DNA of 17,535 nt from Nitrospirota bacterium (lineage in GTDB: Bacteria; Nitrospirota; Thermodesulfovibrionia; Thermodesulfovibrionales; Dissulfurispiraceae): positions 1-17,535 of the forward strand of contig JBFLWF010000037.1 in NCBI GenBank assembly GCA_040758355.1, written 5' to 3'. Every line of letters begins with the position of its first letter. The stretch's first letter is position 1. The notes below the pieces were generated by a model. It was not told the origin of the DNA. It saw nothing but the letters and a program-made list of their open reading frames with translations, and made no database searches. The position numbers were made by a program, and so were the translations under genes. Of the stretch, positions 8,927 through 17,280 are shown in pieces.

Positions 8927-9451
8927 ATGGTGAAGAGTGAGAGGATCGACGCCGAGGGGCTTAGTTTAAAGGACAAGGTTGTGTACATAAACAGGGTTGC
9001 CAAGGTTGTGAAGGGCGGCAGGAGATTCTCCTTCAGCGCCCTCGTTGTGGTCGGAGACGAAAACGGCATCGTTGGCGTTGGCAAAGGCAAGGCAACAGAA
9101 GTTCCCGAGGCCATAAGAAAGGCCGTGGAACAGGCAAAGAAAAGACTCATGAGGTTCCCGTTGAAGGAAGGAACAATACCCCACAGGATTATCGGGCGGT
9201 ACGGCTCGAACTCTGTGGTCATGAATCCTGCAAAGAAGGGTACAGGGCTGATCGCAGGTGGTCCTGTCCGTGCTGTCTTTGAGGTGGCGGGAATACACGA
9301 CATCGTTGCAAAGTCTCTCGGCAGTCATAATCCGTTTAATGCCGTAAAGGCAACACTGGACGGGCTCGGCAGCCTGAAAAACCCCGATGCTGTTTTAAAG
9401 CTCAGGGGCAAATCAGAGGAAGAGCCTGCAGCAGAAGAGACGAACGAATAA
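8927..9451 (+). CDS. rpsE: 30S ribosomal protein S5
   Basis: [30 protein letters not shown]; true start may be GTG 8930 given the SD at 8919-8925. Confidence 0.98.
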
Positions 9452-9491
9452 CAGTAAGCAGAAGAAGGATAGGAGGTTAGAAAAGATAACC

Positions 9492-9950
9492 ATGAAGATA
9501 CAGGATTTAACTCCGGGAGGAGGCAGCAAAAGGCGGTCTAAGAGAATAGGTCGTGGCCCAGGCTCAGGACACGGAAAGACAGCCACAAAAGGGCATAAAG
9601 GACAGAAGTCCCGTTCCGGAGGCACAAAAGGTCCTTCCTTCGAGGGCGGTCAGACGCCTTTACAGAGGAGATTGCCCAAGAGGGGGTTTAAGAATGCTCC
9701 CTTTAAGAAGGTGTATGCGGTTTTAAATCTCAGTGATCTGGTAAAACTTGATATCGATACCATAACTCCCGAGGCGCTTTTAGAGAAGAGGGTTATAAAG
9801 GATTTAAAATATGGCATAAAGATACTCGGTGAAGGCACTGTAAACAAGCCATTGACCATAAAGGCCCATGCCTTTAGCGCTTCAGCAGTATCAAAGATAA
9901 ATGCTGCCGGCGGTAAGGCTGAAATACTTTCGCCTTCAAAGGTGCTTTAA
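9492..9950 (+). CDS. rplO: 50S ribosomal protein L15
   Basis: [30 protein letters not shown]. Confidence 0.98.
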
Positions 9951-9952
9951 CA

Positions 9953-11260
9953 TTGGGAGTCCTTGCAAACATCAGAAATATATTTAAGATCCCTGAGCTC
10001 AAAGTCAGGGTTCTTTTCACATTAAGCCTCCTCACTGTCTATAGAATCGGAGCACACATACCAACACCGGGGATCAATGGCGATGCCTTGAGCAAATTCC
10101 TCACGGAAAAAGGGGGAGCCCTCATGGGCTTTTTCGATATGTTTTCCGGCGGTGCATTGTCTAGGGTTACCATTTTTGCCCTCGGCATAATGCCTTATAT
10201 CAGTGCATCCATCATATTCCAGCTCCTGACAGTTGTCATTCCTGCCCTCGGAAGAATCGCAAAGGAAGGAGAGGCAGGCAAAAAGAAGATCGTTAAATAC
10301 ACGAGGTATGCCACTGTTGTCATAGCCGCCATCCAGTCTTTGGGTATAGCAATCGGTATTGAAGGCATGTCAGGCGGCCAGTTTGTACAGAATCCTGGAT
10401 GGTCGTTCAGGCTTCTTACAATGATTACACTCACATCGGGCACTGCCTTTTTGATGTGGCTCGGCGAGCAGATAACCGAGAGGGGCATCGGCAACGGCAT
10501 ATCCCTGATAATTTTTGCAGGAATAGTTGCGAGATTCCCCAATGCTATAGTCAACACCTTTAATCTTGTAAGGGCTGGAGAGCTGTCCGTATTCTTTGTC
10601 CTTATTCTTGTTGTGATGATGGTCGCTGTAGTGGGTGGTATCGTATTCATAGAGAGGGGACAGAGGAAGATACCTGTCCAGTATGCAAGAAGGGTTGTGG
10701 GCAGAAAGGTTTTCGGTGGACAGACTACCCATCTGCCTTTAAAGATCAATACATCGGGAGTTATCCCTCCCATATTCGCATCATCAATAATAATGTTTCC
10801 TGCAACCGTTGCAGGCTTTATCAGCATACCATGGGTTCAGGGCATAGCAAAGCAATTATCCCCGGGGACTGCAATGTATACAACCCTGTATGTGGGCTTG
10901 ATATTCTTCTTCAGCTATTTTTATACAGCAGTAATATTCAACCCCGTGGATATCGCAGACAACTTACAAAAACATGGCGGTTTTATTCCCGGGATCAGGC
11001 CTGGTCAGAAGACCTCCGAGTATATATACAGGGTGCTCACAAGGCTTACCTTTGTCGGCGCGGTTTATCTGGCCATAGTATGCGTCATGCCCGAGCTTTT
11101 AATCGGGAAATTCAATCTGCCGTTCTATTTTGGAGGCACATCCCTTCTCATAGCTGTTGGTGTTGCCCTTGACACTGTTTCGCAGATAGAATCCCATCTC
11201 GTGACAAGGTCTTATGAAGGCTTCCTTAAGAAAGGAAGGCTGAGGGGCAGAAGAGGCTGA
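9953..11260 (+). CDS. secY: Preprotein translocase subunit SecY
   Basis: IFALGIMPYISASII, WLGEQITERGIGNGISLIIFAGI, FIPGIRPG, FGGTSLLI; multiple TM segments; TTG start. Confidence 0.99.
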   Translation: MGVLANIRNIFKIPELKVRVLFTLSLLTVYRIGAHIPTPGINGDALSKFLTEKGGALMGFFDMFSGGALSRVTIFALGIMPYISASIIFQLLTVVIPALGRIAKEGEAGKKKIVKYTRYATVVIAAIQSLGIAIGIEGMSGGQFVQNPGWSFRLLTMITLTSGTAFLMWLGEQITERGIGNGISLIIFAGIVARFPNAIVNTFNLVRAGELSVFFVLILVVMMVAVVGGIVFIERGQRKIPVQYARRVVGRKVFGGQTTHLPLKINTSGVIPPIFASSIIMFPATVAGFISIPWVQGIAKQLSPGTAMYTTLYVGLIFFFSYFYTAVIFNPVDIADNLQKHGGFIPGIRPGQKTSEYIYRVLTRLTFVGAVYLAIVCVMPELLIGKFNLPFYFGGTSLLIAVGVALDTVSQIESHLVTRSYEGFLKKGRLRGRRG

Positions 11261-11281
11261 AACATTAAGCAGCAAACAGAT

Positions 11282-12034
11282 GTGATAATAATTAAATCTC
11301 AGTCAGAAATAAATAAGATAGCCGCTGCATGCCGCATAGTGGCAGAGATTCTGGAAGGTCTTAAAGCCTTTGTTAAGACAGGCATATCCACTGCCGATAT
11401 AGAGGCGTATGTGGATAGGGAAATAAATAAGAGGGGTGCAACCCCTGCCTTTAAGGGATACAGAGGGTATCCGTCGAGTGTATGCATATCTGTAAACGAG
11501 CAGGTTGTGCACGGGATACCATCCAGGGCAGCAAGACTAAAAAACGGTGATATTGTGAGCATAGATTTAGGGGCGATACTGGACGGATTTTATGGCGATG
11601 CAGCTTTGACCATTCCTGTTGGAGATATAAGTCCTGATGCATCACGGCTTATCATGGTGACAGAGGAAGCCTTCTACAAGGGAATTGAAAAGGCGGTAGC
11701 CGGAAACAGGGTTTCCGATATATCTGCCGCAATACAGGATCATGTGGAGTCCAATGGTTTTTCGGTGGTGAGGGCCTTTGTCGGCCACGGCATCGGCCGT
11801 TCGCTCCACGAAGAGCCGCAGGTTCCGAACTTCGGGAAACCGGGACAGGGGCCGAGGTTGAAAGAGGGTATGACCATGGCAGTTGAGCCCATGGTCAATG
11901 CCGGAGGCCCTGACGTTAAGATACTGGATGACGGCTGGACAGCGATTACCGCAGACGGCAGCCTGTCAGCCCATTATGAGCATACAGTTGCAATAACAAA
12001 AAATGGCGCTGAAATCTTGACTAAACTCTCATGA
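11282..12034 (+). CDS. map: Type I methionine aminopeptidase
   Basis: CISVNEQVVHGIP, DGFYGDAA, GHGIGRSLHEEP, AVEPMVN, SAHYEHT metal-ligand motifs; GTG start. Confidence 0.98.
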   Translation: MIIIKSQSEINKIAAACRIVAEILEGLKAFVKTGISTADIEAYVDREINKRGATPAFKGYRGYPSSVCISVNEQVVHGIPSRAARLKNGDIVSIDLGAILDGFYGDAALTIPVGDISPDASRLIMVTEEAFYKGIEKAVAGNRVSDISAAIQDHVESNGFSVVRAFVGHGIGRSLHEEPQVPNFGKPGQGPRLKEGMTMAVEPMVNAGGPDVKILDDGWTAITADGSLSAHYEHTVAITKNGAEILTKLS

Positions 12035-14008: not shown

Positions 14009-15010
14009 ATGGATCTTGTTAAAAAGGGCTTTCAGTTACCCAAAAAGATTAACTTTGATGAGGAAACCCTTACCGATTCCTACGGCAAGCTGGTCGTAGA
14101 GCCGCTTGAGCGCGGGTTCGGTACTACCATAGGAAATTCGCTGCGCAGGATTTTGCTTTCCTCGATAGAGGGAGCTGCTGTTACCGCAGTGAGAATCCCC
14201 GGTGTTTTGCACGAATTTTCCAACATAAAGGGTGTAAAGGAAGACGTTGTCGATATTATCCTGAACATAAAGAAACTGAGGTTCAAGATGCACGGTGACG
14301 GCAGGAAGACCGCAACCGTGAAAGTAAAGGGCCCGAAGGTTGTGACAGGCGCTGATATAGAGACAGATCCCAGTGTCGAGGTTTTGAACAGAGACCATCG
14401 TATCGCCACGGTTGACAACGGCACCACGCTGGAAATAGAGATGTACGTAAAAAAGGGAAAGGGCTATATACCGGCAGAGATAAATAAAGAAGAGGGTCTC
14501 CCCATCGATGTGCTTGCCATAGATTCTGTATTCAGCCCCATAAAGAAGGTGAACTTCTGGGTTGAGAAGGCAAGGGTAGGAAGGGCTACGGATTATGACA
14601 GGCTCATCATGGAGGTATGGACCGACGGAAGCATAACCCCTGAGAAGGCGGTGAGCGATGCAGCATCGATACTCATGGACCACCTCGACCTGCTTATCTT
14701 TGTAGAGGAAGAGGAGATAACCGAAGAGACAGCGGGTTCCATGATTGCGGCTGCATCCAATCCATCTTTGAATGAGAACCTGCTGAAGAGCATCGATGAG
14801 CTGGAACTCTCTGTCAGGGCATATAACTGCCTCAAGAATGCCAATATAAAAACAATCGGAGACCTTGTTCAGAAGACAGAGCACGAGATGCTCAGGACAA
14901 AGAACTTTGGCCGCAAGTCCCTGAACGAGATAAAGGAGATACTCGTGGGCATGGGATTGAACTTCGGCATGAGAATAGACATGGATGAATTGGTGAGGGG
15001 AGGTAGATAA
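14009..15010 (+). CDS. rpoA: DNA-directed RNA polymerase subunit alpha
   Basis: EPLERGFGTTIGNSLRRILLSS, GVLHEFS, ELELSVRAYNCLK, KNFGRKSLNEIK. Confidence 0.99.
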   Translation: MDLVKKGFQLPKKINFDEETLTDSYGKLVVEPLERGFGTTIGNSLRRILLSSIEGAAVTAVRIPGVLHEFSNIKGVKEDVVDIILNIKKLRFKMHGDGRKTATVKVKGPKVVTGADIETDPSVEVLNRDHRIATVDNGTTLEIEMYVKKGKGYIPAEINKEEGLPIDVLAIDSVFSPIKKVNFWVEKARVGRATDYDRLIMEVWTDGSITPEKAVSDAASILMDHLDLLIFVEEEEITEETAGSMIAAASNPSLNENLLKSIDELELSVRAYNCLKNANIKTIGDLVQKTEHEMLRTKNFGRKSLNEIKEILVGMGLNFGMRIDMDELVRGGR

Positions 15011-15423
15011 TGCGCCATAAAGTAGCAGGCAGCAATTTCAATAGAACAGCGAACCAGAGAAAGGCATTGCTGAGGGGACTCGTATCGTCCCTCTTCGAGC
15101 ACCAGAGGATAGAGACAACACTGGCAAAGGCAAAGGCAATTAAAGGCATAGCAGAAGAGCTCGTTACCTTTGGCAAGCGCGGCGACCTCCATTCCAAGAG
15201 GATGGTGATGTCCTATATTCCTAACAGGACTGTTGTGGCAAAGCTCTTTTCGGATATAGCTCCGAGGTTTGCAGACAGAAACGGCGGTTATCTGAGGATA
15301 GTCCAGACAAGACAGAGGGTCAATGACAGGGCGCCCATGGCTATTATAGAATTTATCGATTATCAGGACATAAAAGAAAAAGGTCAAGGCAAGGGTCAGG
15401 AAAAAGAAGGTAAGAAAGAATGA
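15010..15423 (+). CDS. rplQ: 50S ribosomal protein L17
   Basis: MRHK, RIETTLAKAK, KLFSDIAPRFADRNGGYLRI, DRAPMAIIE. Confidence 0.98.
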   Translation: MRHKVAGSNFNRTANQRKALLRGLVSSLFEHQRIETTLAKAKAIKGIAEELVTFGKRGDLHSKRMVMSYIPNRTVVAKLFSDIAPRFADRNGGYLRIVQTRQRVNDRAPMAIIEFIDYQDIKEKGQGKGQEKEGKKE

Positions 15424-15554
15424 ACGACATACTCATCGGAGCAGGAATAATCCTGGTATGGGTGATCCTTCAGTTCTTTGTCTTTCCAAAACTCGGAGTA
15501 CCCACCTGAGCGGTGCCGCAAAAGGGTTCGGGAAACTCAAAGAAGTGCAAATAA
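15420..15554 (+). CDS. Small single-pass membrane protein; 29 aa if TGA 15507-15509 is a stop, 44 aa if it is read as selenocysteine
   Basis: ATGA overlap with the rplQ stop, GAAGGT at 15406-15411; MNDILIGAGIILVWVILQFFVFPKLGVPT(TGA)AVPQKGSGNSKKCK-TAA; lies upstream of the operon terminator. Confidence 0.65.
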
Positions 15555-15577
15555 ATTTTCAGAATATAGTTTTAACG

Positions 15578-15607
15578 AAAGGGATTCGCAAAGCGAATCC
15601 CTTTTTT
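15578..15607 (+). terminator. Rho-independent terminator ending the ribosomal protein operon
   Basis: GGGATTCGC-AAA-GCGAATCCC perfect 9-bp stem followed by TTTTTT and preceded by AAA. Confidence 0.9.
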
Positions 15608-15636
15608 GTTATCGAGCATTTATAATATAATTCAGT

Positions 15637-16299
15637 ATGCAGGCAAATAAGAAGAAAAGAATACTTATCGTCGATGACGAGAAAGTGATAAGGGCAAACC
15701 TTTCCGATCTGCTGGAAGGAAACGGCTATCTTACAGATACTGCAGTCTCCGGAAGGCAGGCAATAGAGAAGGTTACGTCAGAGGATTTCGATATCGTTCT
15801 CCTTGATTTGATGATGCCTGTAATGGACGGCATGGAAGCGCTCAAGGAGATCAAGAAGATCAGGCCGAAAATAAAAGTGATCATGATTACCGCCTTCGCC
15901 ACAGTAGAAGGAGCAGTGGATGCCATGAAAAGCGGTGCAAGCGACTACCTGCCCAAACCATACGTACCGCAAGAGCTTCTTGCTACTATAAGCCGGGTAA
16001 TAGACGAGGCAAAATTCGAAAAGGGTCTTAAAAGGTTAAGGCTTGAGGATACCCTTTTCTCCTTATCAAGCCCCATACGTAGAGATATCCTCATGCTGCT
16101 TTATTCAAAGGGAAGCCTGCGTCTAACCGACATAACAAAAAACCTCGAGATAGACGACCATACAAAGGTTATTTTCCATCTGAAGACACTAAAGGAATTC
16201 AGGATGATAGACCACGGCGAAAGATCATACCACCTCACCCGTCTTGGAGAAAAGATAGTAGAATTCCTCAAAATTTTAGGCGCCTACCTTTCGGAATAA
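15637..16299 (+). CDS. Response regulator: N-terminal receiver plus C-terminal ArsR-like winged helix-turn-helix (paralog 1)
   Basis: ILIVDDE, LLDLMMP (D57), T85, K107-P; C-terminal LSSPIRRDIL...FHLKTLKE...YHLTRLG is wHTH-like. Confidence 0.88.
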   Translation: MQANKKKRILIVDDEKVIRANLSDLLEGNGYLTDTAVSGRQAIEKVTSEDFDIVLLDLMMPVMDGMEALKEIKKIRPKIKVIMITAFATVEGAVDAMKSGASDYLPKPYVPQELLATISRVIDEAKFEKGLKRLRLEDTLFSLSSPIRRDILMLLYSKGSLRLTDITKNLEIDDHTKVIFHLKTLKEFRMIDHGERSYHLTRLGEKIVEFLKILGAYLSE

Positions 16300-16617: not shown

Positions 16618-17280
16618 ATGAAAACAGATAGGCAAAAAAGAATCCTCATTGTCGATGATGAGGAAGTAATAAGGGCAAACCTTTCCGAGATCCTGAAAGA
16701 AAACGGCTATTTTACAGATGCGGCGGTCTCCGGAATACAGGCCATTAACAAGGCTACCTCTGCTGATTTTGATGTTGTTCTCCTTGATTTGATGATGCCT
16801 GTGATGGACGGTATGGAAACGCTCAAGGAGATCAAAAAGATCAGGCCGAAAATAAAAGTGATCATGATTACCGCTTTTGCCACAGTAGAAGGGGCAGTGG
16901 ATGCTATGAAAAATGGTGCAAGCGACTATGTCCGTAAACCGTATATGCCCCATGAACTCATTGCTACCATACAACGGACACTCGAAGAGGCACGATTTGA
17001 ATCAAACCTTAAAAAGATGAATTTCGAATATGCCATTCTTCCCTTGTCCAATCCAATAAGGAGGGATATACTGCTGTTGCTTTACTCGAAAGGAAGCAAG
17101 CGTTTCATGGACTTCGTACGAGAGTTCGACATGGATGACCATACAAAACTTACCTTTCATATCAACATGCTCAGAGAACACGGCTTGGTAGAACAGGGAA
17201 GAAGGTCATATTCCCTTACCCCAAAAGGAGTAAGAATGGTGGAGTTCCTGAGGATCTCGGAGGCCTACCTTTCAGCATAA
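16618..17280 (+). CDS. Response regulator: receiver plus ArsR-like winged helix-turn-helix (paralog 2)
   Basis: Same length as 15637..16299 and aligns without gaps; D13/D14, D57, T85 and K107 conserved. Confidence 0.88.
   Translation: MKTDRQKRILIVDDEEVIRANLSEILKENGYFTDAAVSGIQAINKATSADFDVVLLDLMMPVMDGMETLKEIKKIRPKIKVIMITAFATVEGAVDAMKNGASDYVRKPYMPHELIATIQRTLEEARFESNLKKMNFEYAILPLSNPIRRDILLLLYSKGSKRFMDFVREFDMDDHTKLTFHINMLREHGLVEQGRRSYSLTPKGVRMVEFLRISEAYLSA

Follow-up and report, generated by a model that had tools for sequence, protein, structure and literature searches.

A 44-codon membrane peptide gene with an in-frame UGA behind rplQ: a probable selenoprotein from a widespread family

The window, i.e. 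the entire stretch of 17,535 nucleotides analysed here, comprises a tuf-S10-spc-alpha ribosomal operon whose end genes are rpoA (14009-15010) and rplQ. The TGA stop codon of rplQ shares the tetranucleotide ATGA with the start codon of a small ORF. The same type of overlap is found in the window at rpsJ/rplC, rplD/rplW and rplP/rpmC. The ORF is composed of 29 codons, a TGA, 14 sense codons and a TAA (15552-15554), and a terminator-like stem (15577-15605) with an adjacent T run closes the operon (Table 1). The first-pass annotation had proposed a candidate selenoprotein gene at this place. The ATGA overlap, GAAGGT, TGA, 14 codons, TAA and hairpin that it listed are all present in the sequence where it had located them, and so is the strong terminator, which it had assigned to 15578-15607. 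An RNA contig from one sequencing run covers 15116-15313, a part of rplQ. Elsewhere in the operon, there is no space for rpmD (L30) between rpsE and rplO (9451-9492) or for adk between secY and map (11260-11282). Downstream of the terminator, two tandem paralogous genes are located (15637-16299 and 16618-17280). The first one, which was scanned, encodes a response-regulator receiver and a C-terminal DUF7347-like domain. The window contains no kinase gene.

Table 1. Features at the end of the ribosomal operon (positions in the window)
Feature	Position	Strand	Basis
rplQ (L17), upstream cistron	15010..15423	+	rplQ directly 5' of the ORF in 30/30 fetched loci
Shine-Dalgarno-like GAAGGT, 8 nt 5' of ATG	15406..15411	+	sequence only
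44-codon gene, single-pass membrane selenoprotein if UGA encodes Sec	15420..15554	+	sequence and homologs
Transmembrane helix, residues 3-24	15426..15491	+	AlphaFold helix 3-24; mean hydropathy 2.75
P-[KR]-[LFM]-G-[VI]-x-T, juxtamembrane motif immediately N-terminal to Sec	15486..15506	+	alignments
In-frame TGA, inferred Sec30	15507..15509	+	TGA in 48/48 of the order; Cys in homologs
SECIS-like hairpin GGGTT-CGGGA-AACTC, 5 bp stem, CGGGA loop	15524..15538	+	covariation; type common to selD, fdhA
Candidate resolving thiol Cys43, 13 residues C-terminal to Sec and penultimate in the peptide	15546..15548	+	Cys in 27/28 rows of alignment A1
Intrinsic terminator-like stem and T run, 3' of the full frame	15577..15608	+	sequence

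Clear homologs (E<=0.012) are encoded in 52 of 61 related genomes including the source genome, each with one TGA; one further match in this search was due to chance and was left out. In 60 of these 61 genomes, selB was found. From the window's order, 56 loci yielded 48 distinct sequences, and all 48 have TGA in the Sec column, as expected by the first-pass annotation for a Sec codon. For comparison, TGA ends 621 of 2,014 long ORFs (~31%) in the source genome. The next stop codons of the 48 sequences are mixed: 24 TAA, 13 TGA and 10 TAG, and one sequence runs off. The tail frame is open for at least 13 codons in all 48 sequences, and the +2 frame closes within 13 codons in 37 of them. The +1 frame is mostly open, too (it closes early in 3/48), so that it is not informative as a control. 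In 28 tails of 14 codons, the mismatch at codon positions 1, 2 and 3 after the TGA amounts to 0.28, 0.28 and 0.60, respectively, versus a flat 0.73, 0.72 and 0.73 downstream of the real stop. Indels in alignment A1 comprise whole codons, and a tail Cys is present in 44 of the 48 distinct sequences. This means that coding conservation indeed continues past the TGA. Throughout the order, the ORF has been conserved together with its TGA and hairpin. TAA or TAG in the Sec column had been named as an argument against Sec decoding: None occurs among the 48 sequences, and the single TAA copy found elsewhere belongs to a decayed homolog. The gene is real and, judged from the sequences, its product is almost certainly a 44-residue membrane peptide in which an apparent stop codon is read as Sec. 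The comparison strongly supports Sec decoding of the UGA, to which we assign a probability of about 95%. At one locus (L003, G004:C7), the stop is replaced after locus position 1632 and the frame continues into unrelated sequence close to where the contig ends; this may be due to an insertion or an assembly join.

A sample of 251 genomes from the phylum yielded 54 matches, one of which is a chance match without the motif. The other 53, which include kin and are therefore not independent, all belong to the window's own class and are all selB-positive; none of the 119 selB-less genomes has a real match. In 10 selB-positive genomes with a weak or no match, the DNA behind rplQ was inspected. Two of them (G038 and G050) carry diverged copies that have kept the TGA, the hairpin and a terminal K-K-C. 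In the other eight, such an ORF is absent 3' of rplQ, which means that the gene is dispensable.

The gene is located directly 3' of rplQ in all 30 fetched loci. Among 19 further motif-bearing loci, 16 have it after rplQ, one after secG and two after neither. In one family, the gene follows tpiA-secG instead of rplQ (five loci: L065, L073-L075, L301). None of 30 loci from the phylum of Desulfobacteraceae is near rplQ. The proposed link to the translation machinery applies to the window's class, where the gene shares an operon with ribosomal genes; elsewhere, genes for thiol-redox and sulfur functions are found nearby instead. As indicated by the sequences, the form in the window is a sub-lineage that became fixed 3' of rplQ and whose partner Cys moved to +13.

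The source genome (2.77 Mb, 99% complete) encodes the machinery required for Sec insertion, the lack of which would have spoken against a selenoprotein: selA, selB and selD score above the curated cut-offs, and a tRNA-Sec with UCA anticodon was found. An in-frame TGA is also present in selD, and GGGTC-CGTCG-GACCT, a hairpin of the same type, comes after it. A strict scan required a stem of 5 bp or more with a 5-nt [CA]G[GT] loop 15-25 nt after TGA, a pattern set after sight of the hairpins of this ORF and selD. It matched 192 of 99,253 TGA triplets of the genome, among them that of selD. Motifs among the matches are those of selenoproteins that we take to be formate dehydrogenase (FdhA), a YeeE-like protein and rhodanese. 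The likely selenoprotein genes other than this ORF are located on contigs C3, C4, C9 and C29. Judged from their motifs, they presumably encode formate dehydrogenase, a YeeE-like protein with two TGAs, two rhodanese-like proteins, a U-P-Y-C thiol oxidoreductase and one more protein on C4.

The loop of the hairpin is separated from the UGA by 19 nt. It comprises 5 nt with G as second base and is closed by a 5 bp stem. The bSECIS model demands a loop of 3-9 nt, a stem of 4-16 bp, a G in the first two loop positions, a spacing of 16-37 nt and an MFE <= -7.5 kcal/mol; known genes outside this model are acknowledged in the review that describes it (PMC13188914). The geometry of the window hairpin lies within these ranges. 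Its energy, -4.1 to -6.6 kcal/mol, misses the limit of -7.5. With -4.1 kcal/mol, it is no more stable than shuffled sequences (z +0.76), so its earlier description as weak is correct for the hairpin alone. Most homologs pass the -7.5 limit when the 45 nt after the UGA are considered. When 30 loci were aligned with MAFFT, pairing was seen in 86.7% of the cells of the 5-bp stem, and 5 both-side changes were counted versus 1.5 in shuffled controls. In a loop-anchored comparison of 45 of the 48 sequences, an arrangement that favours the structure, 36 both-side pair changes were observed versus 11.2 in shuffled alignments, which is above all slid controls. The suggestion of a bacterial SECIS element is borne out by geometry and covariation, but not by energy. 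A simple SECIS-like scan was positive for 42 of 48 family members versus 41 of 961 TGA-ended long ORFs of the genome, and some of these 41 background ORFs are real selenoprotein genes. Outside the order, a looser scan detected a hairpin in 38 of 41 TGA forms versus 7 of 18 Cys forms.

Beyond the phylum, the family is broad. A profile search yielded 685 clusters at 50% identity. Among the best 150 of them, 125 end exactly before the Sec column, because gene calling used table 11; 13 continue with Cys, six with Trp, three with Arg, and one each with Gly and Leu, and one is spurious. The assumption that the ORF is too short for standard gene callers proved half right: The 29-codon stub is often called but cut at the TGA, as in these 125 matches, so that the gene is truncated rather than always missed. 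Members were found in 92 of 201 genomes sampled around a Desulfobacteraceae genome (all but two with TGA, one with Cys and one with TAA), in 15 of 171 around a Thermoguttaceae genome (Planctomycete; 14 with TGA), in 46 of 151 around a Bryobacteraceae genome and in 19 of 151 around a Polyangia genome. Members in these four other phyla are mostly of the type U-x4-C. In the Planctomycete sample, all 14 TGA carriers have a selB match (background 121/171), and the Cys carrier has none. The TGA form is present in 7 of the 10 genomes of this sample with at least two selB-like matches, hinting that many single matches represent a SelB-like paralog. In the phylum sets around Bryobacteraceae and Polyangia, tRNA-Sec was detected in 50 of 58 TGA carriers, its absence from the other eight being subject to partial scoring and draft genomes, and in 5 of 7 sense-codon carriers. 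Hence, Cys forms are not confined to Sec-less genomes. At least 120 metagenome loci and one viral locus show the TGA-ATG pattern; all 121 have a transmembrane segment upstream, 111 a Cys at +5 and 114 a hairpin. The viral locus is a TGA-type copy (L287) on an IMG/VR contig, which may be host DNA. Searches of plasmids gave no family match. Among 7,999 candidates scored for fusions, seven longer matches were found, all of them extensions without a Pfam domain.

Cys-containing homologs, whose absence would have counted against Sec decoding in the first-pass annotation, exist: 18 loci and 53 Cys-form proteins were identified. In the 53 proteins, P23, G26, T29, C30 and C35 are invariant. The Cys forms occur in 18 named genomes, and selB is above the cut-off in 2 of 10 that were tested. 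Other residues in the Sec column are Arg, Gly, Leu or Trp (P0021, P0042, P0052, P0142 and the six proteins continuing with Trp), for each of which a codon one base from TGA exists. Non-canonical Sec codons are known from the literature. These forms could be such codons, errors, table-4 gene calls or decay. In L310 (G386:C11:52757-52930), the motif has decayed and the Sec column holds TAA, yet a Cys is still found 6 codons on. Genome G386 has a normal tRNA-Sec, selB and a Sec-type selD. Recoding of TAA in this genome was rejected, as the anticodon of the tRNA-Sec is UCA and selD uses TGA. Two subfamilies deviate in the tail. L312, L313, L315, L316 and L319 (G463, G403, G372, G297 and G338) are paralogs with the same transmembrane start and an inserted stretch that ends with C-P-T-U, a CxxU motif, and is followed by no later Cys; in 4 of the 5 genomes, such a copy accompanies a normal one. 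In L334-L336 and L341-L343 from the phylum of Polyangia, U-[AM]-V-P precedes an R-R-S motif, and a second Cys is absent from the vicinity. Their Cys counterparts, C-A-V-P and C-M-V-P, occur in genomes with tRNA-Sec.

AlphaFold predicts a single helix and a low-confidence tail. W14 and Q18 in the helix are conserved, and P23 and G26 are invariant in alignments A1, A3, A6 and A7. The N-terminal net charge is <=0 in 47 of 47 sequences, and the C-terminal side is positive in 46 of 47. According to the positive-inside rule, Sec should therefore face the cytoplasm next to the membrane. From the model and the charges, we infer an N-out, C-in topology: Sec would lie immediately below the surface of the membrane, and the short basic tail, rich in Gly, Pro, Ser and Lys, would be unstructured and cytoplasmic. 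The second Cys is found at +5 in most lineages and at +8 or +13 to +17 in the window's order, where 26 of 47 sequences have it at +13 and 4 of 47 have no tail Cys. Several Myxococcota copies lack a Cys within the first 15-25 tail residues. The variable Sec-Cys spacing argues against a rigid catalytic motif. A Sec/Cys redox pair, as suggested by the tail Cys in 44 of 48 sequences, is plausible. A lipoprotein or signal peptide was rejected due to the acidic N-terminus and the lack of a lipobox, i.e. on sequence grounds. A thioredoxin-fold UxxC/CxxU selenoprotein does not correspond to the single helix, the disordered tail and the lack of Pfam or NCBIfam matches.

The neighbourhood provides clues to the function. 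Among 180 loci outside the order, thioredoxin, CcdA or TlpA genes are located within 2.5 kb in 29, a raw count that has no background rate and includes close kin, e.g. five related loci among L036-L041. DUF302 genes were counted in 13 and a cluster of rhodanese, MBL, flavin-disulfide reductase and YgaP-TM genes in 11 of the 180 loci; ArsR genes occur in six and RND genes in five (all raw counts within 2.5 kb). Neighbours were named by Pfam on 105 chosen ORFs, and many of the 180 loci are short contigs. About 150 loci have no thioredoxin-family neighbour, and the neighbours of the gene in the window are ribosomal and not redox genes. A modelled complex of a Cys-form peptide with the neighbouring CcdA domain scored 0.00, which is no evidence either way.

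The likeliest function, with odds somewhat short of even, is that of a membrane-anchored, cytoplasm-facing selenol/thiol redox switch that is reset by thioredoxin. As last cistron of the S10-spc-alpha operon, the gene would be translated by ribosomes that re-initiate at the overlap with rplQ. At the UGA, SelB that has docked on the hairpin 19 nt further on very probably inserts Sec at codon 30; otherwise, a 29-residue stub would be released. Most likely, Sec is a fast nucleophile that becomes oxidised or persulfidated, be it through a membrane partner or through reactive species of oxygen or sulfur. The tail Cys could resolve it into a selenylsulfide loop, which thioredoxin would reduce again. 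Through such resolution and re-reduction, the peptide would act as a membrane-tethered redox switch or relay in the network of thioredoxin/CcdA and sulfane sulfur. Its location 3' of rplQ could provide constant, growth-coupled expression.

Other explanations have to be considered. If the UGA were a plain stop, a 29-residue membrane peptide would be made and the tail would be untranslated. The 125 of 150 best database matches that end there, the homolog with TAA and the eight of 58 TGA carriers in which tRNA-Sec was not detected agree with this, yet it is very improbable: TGA, which accounts for only ~31% of the stops in the genome, occupies the column in 48/48 sequences and the real stops are mixed, and neither the coding signature with exclusively in-frame indels nor the Cys homologs nor the covarying hairpin would be expected. 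A device for selenium status is improbable, too. It could be a Sec sink that costs little and is translated at a high rate, or a sensor that signals the supply of Sec-tRNA to a membrane partner through its two forms of 29 aa (short) and 44 aa (long). Such a device would profit from the strong operon and the weak hairpin in this lineage, and the most conserved residues precede the UGA, the tail sequence being largely shaped by the hairpin. But Cys forms with two invariant Cys persist in genomes without a selB match (8/10), which indicates that the chemistry matters without selenium.

The peptide might also bind or sense metals or metalloids (As, Hg, Cu, Zn), which Sec and Cys would coordinate at the surface of the membrane, possibly as an oligomer or in support of an efflux system. 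In line with this rather unlikely role, the flexible tail offers two soft ligands, extra Cys are present in some Cys forms, ArsR (6/180) and RND (5/180) genes are among the neighbours, and an HMA domain and a MerR gene were each noted in single loci. However, thioredoxin-family genes outnumber such neighbours, a ribosomal operon with its constant expression is a poor match for an inducible metal response, and sets of ArsR, RND, YgaP and rhodanese genes are also compatible with persulfide handling. Similarly doubtful is a redox-sensitive accessory of the Sec translocon or the membrane-bound ribosome, by analogy a miniature SELENOS, whose helix would dock on SecYEG or YidC and whose basic Sec-Cys loop would contact the ribosome or nascent chains. 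In this class, the operon that the gene concludes also contains secY (rplQ-linked in 30/30 and 16/19 loci), and in one family it directly follows secG. Polar Q18 and W14 are conserved in the helix as for a partner surface, and the 14-residue Sec30-Cys43 loop, the penultimate Cys and the tail with 25% Lys are exclusive to this lineage. For comparison, human SELENOS has a 15-residue loop between Cys174 and Sec188 and associates with Sec61 complexes and ribosomes (PMC13524514). By contrast, 0 of 30 loci from the phylum of Desulfobacteraceae are near rplQ, the gene was lost in several genera of the order, and hitch-hiking on strong housekeeping operons accounts for both the rplQ and the secG placement. 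By the same analogy, one could envisage, with little probability, that the ribosomal/secY operon (in one family, the site behind secG) captured a micro-selenoprotein with a general redox role in the membrane, which gained the 14-residue Sec-Cys loop and became a selenium-dependent redox switch of the translocon or membrane-bound ribosome. This would make it a bacterial functional counterpart of SELENOS and tie selenium and redox state to membrane protein biogenesis.

The first-pass annotation mentioned similar small transmembrane peptides, and rightly so: The family is a published prediction under an obscure label, 'Unknown (Geobacter lovleyi)', reported for 5 organisms in Table S3 of Peng et al. 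(2016; PMC5029168). Six sequences of this name, printed in 2025, share one N-terminal hydrophobic helix with W-x3-[QN], then L-P-[KR]-[LM]-G-[IV]-x-T-U-[ML]-x3-C and a short charged tail; they were compared by eye and are tied to the 2016 label by name, as the 2016 table provides no sequence. Their pattern is the consensus of the cross-phylum alignment A6, which includes the window's peptide. By eye, this peptide displays W-x3-[QN] in the helix and P-[KR]-[LM]-G-[IV]-x-T-U, and its profile retrieves proteins of exactly the printed type. It differs from the six printed members by U-A-V-P instead of U-[ML]-S, by a shorter, Lys-rich tail and by its fixed place 3' of rplQ. In addition, the U-x4-C spacing of all six, with the second Cys at +5, is replaced by a Cys at +13, which designates the window's lineage as a variant sub-lineage. 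In its accessible parts, the 2016 source gives neither function, topology, SECIS analysis nor context for the family (PMC5029168). The family is absent from Tables S1 and S2 of deep-Sep (PMC12013277) and from the 119-family table of a 2026 review (PMC13188914), and 'lovleyi' does not appear in the main text of this or of a 2022 review. In the open-access literature, no paper on function, topology or a link to rplQ of the family was found. The window's peptide has no match in Pfam or NCBIfam. Searches of both with 67 members gave only weak transmembrane look-alikes (EmbA-type, ATP synthase b; best E 0.005), a profile search of PDB sequences nothing below E 0.18 and Rfam nothing real. The ESM Atlas contains one unnamed cluster at 0.89, which is a lead only. 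In the source databases, members are labelled 'hypothetical protein' or unnamed.

What is added here is the breadth of the family, its topology, the covariation of the SECIS-like hairpin, the gene context and the placement behind rplQ or secG. With members in ~46% of the sampled genomes from the phylum of Desulfobacteraceae, in 30% from that of Bryobacteraceae and in most of this order, the family is far more widespread than recorded (5 organisms in 2016, missing from the table of the 2026 catalogue). It may rank among the commoner bacterial selenoproteins, for which databases hold a 29-residue 'hypothetical protein'. Since a ribosomal operon captured the gene, it seems that the Sec expenditure of these anaerobes scales with growth. 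As a minimal membrane selenoprotein that has no enzyme fold and can be synthesised, it permits a simple test of Sec at the membrane surface.

Among known systems, the genes of selD, fdhA, YeeE-like and rhodanese selenoproteins resemble this gene in that a short stem bearing a 5-nt [CA]G[GT] loop lies 16-24 nt 3' of the UGA. Bacterial selenoprotein genes with a bSECIS inside the ORF have Cys homologs, too. In contrast to these, the peptide comprises only 44 residues without an enzyme fold, and most of the sequence 3' of the Sec codon is taken up by the SECIS element. The YgaP-like transmembrane domain (DUF2892, PF11127) also comprises small membrane proteins, some of which end with G-[IM]-[SR]-T-C, and adjoins the family gene in some loci, but it has two helices and a C-P-x-Y motif. 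Homology to it, suggested by a resemblance, was rejected, since profile comparison yielded a probability of 2% over 6-8 columns. In eukaryotes, the counterpart in general layout is SELENOS, with which SELENOK is grouped. SELENOS differs by its length (189 versus 44 residues) and its SECIS in the 3'-UTR. Human SELENOS is described with a membrane anchor, a disordered cytosolic tail, a 15-residue Cys174-Sec188 loop and an association with Sec61 complexes and ribosomes (PMC13524514). The likeness to the window's peptide, an analogy only, consists in the anchor, the tail and a Sec-Cys loop of ~15 residues, many of which are Gly, Pro or basic (PMC13524514). The order is mirrored: Sec is penultimate in SELENOS and juxtamembrane in the window's peptide.
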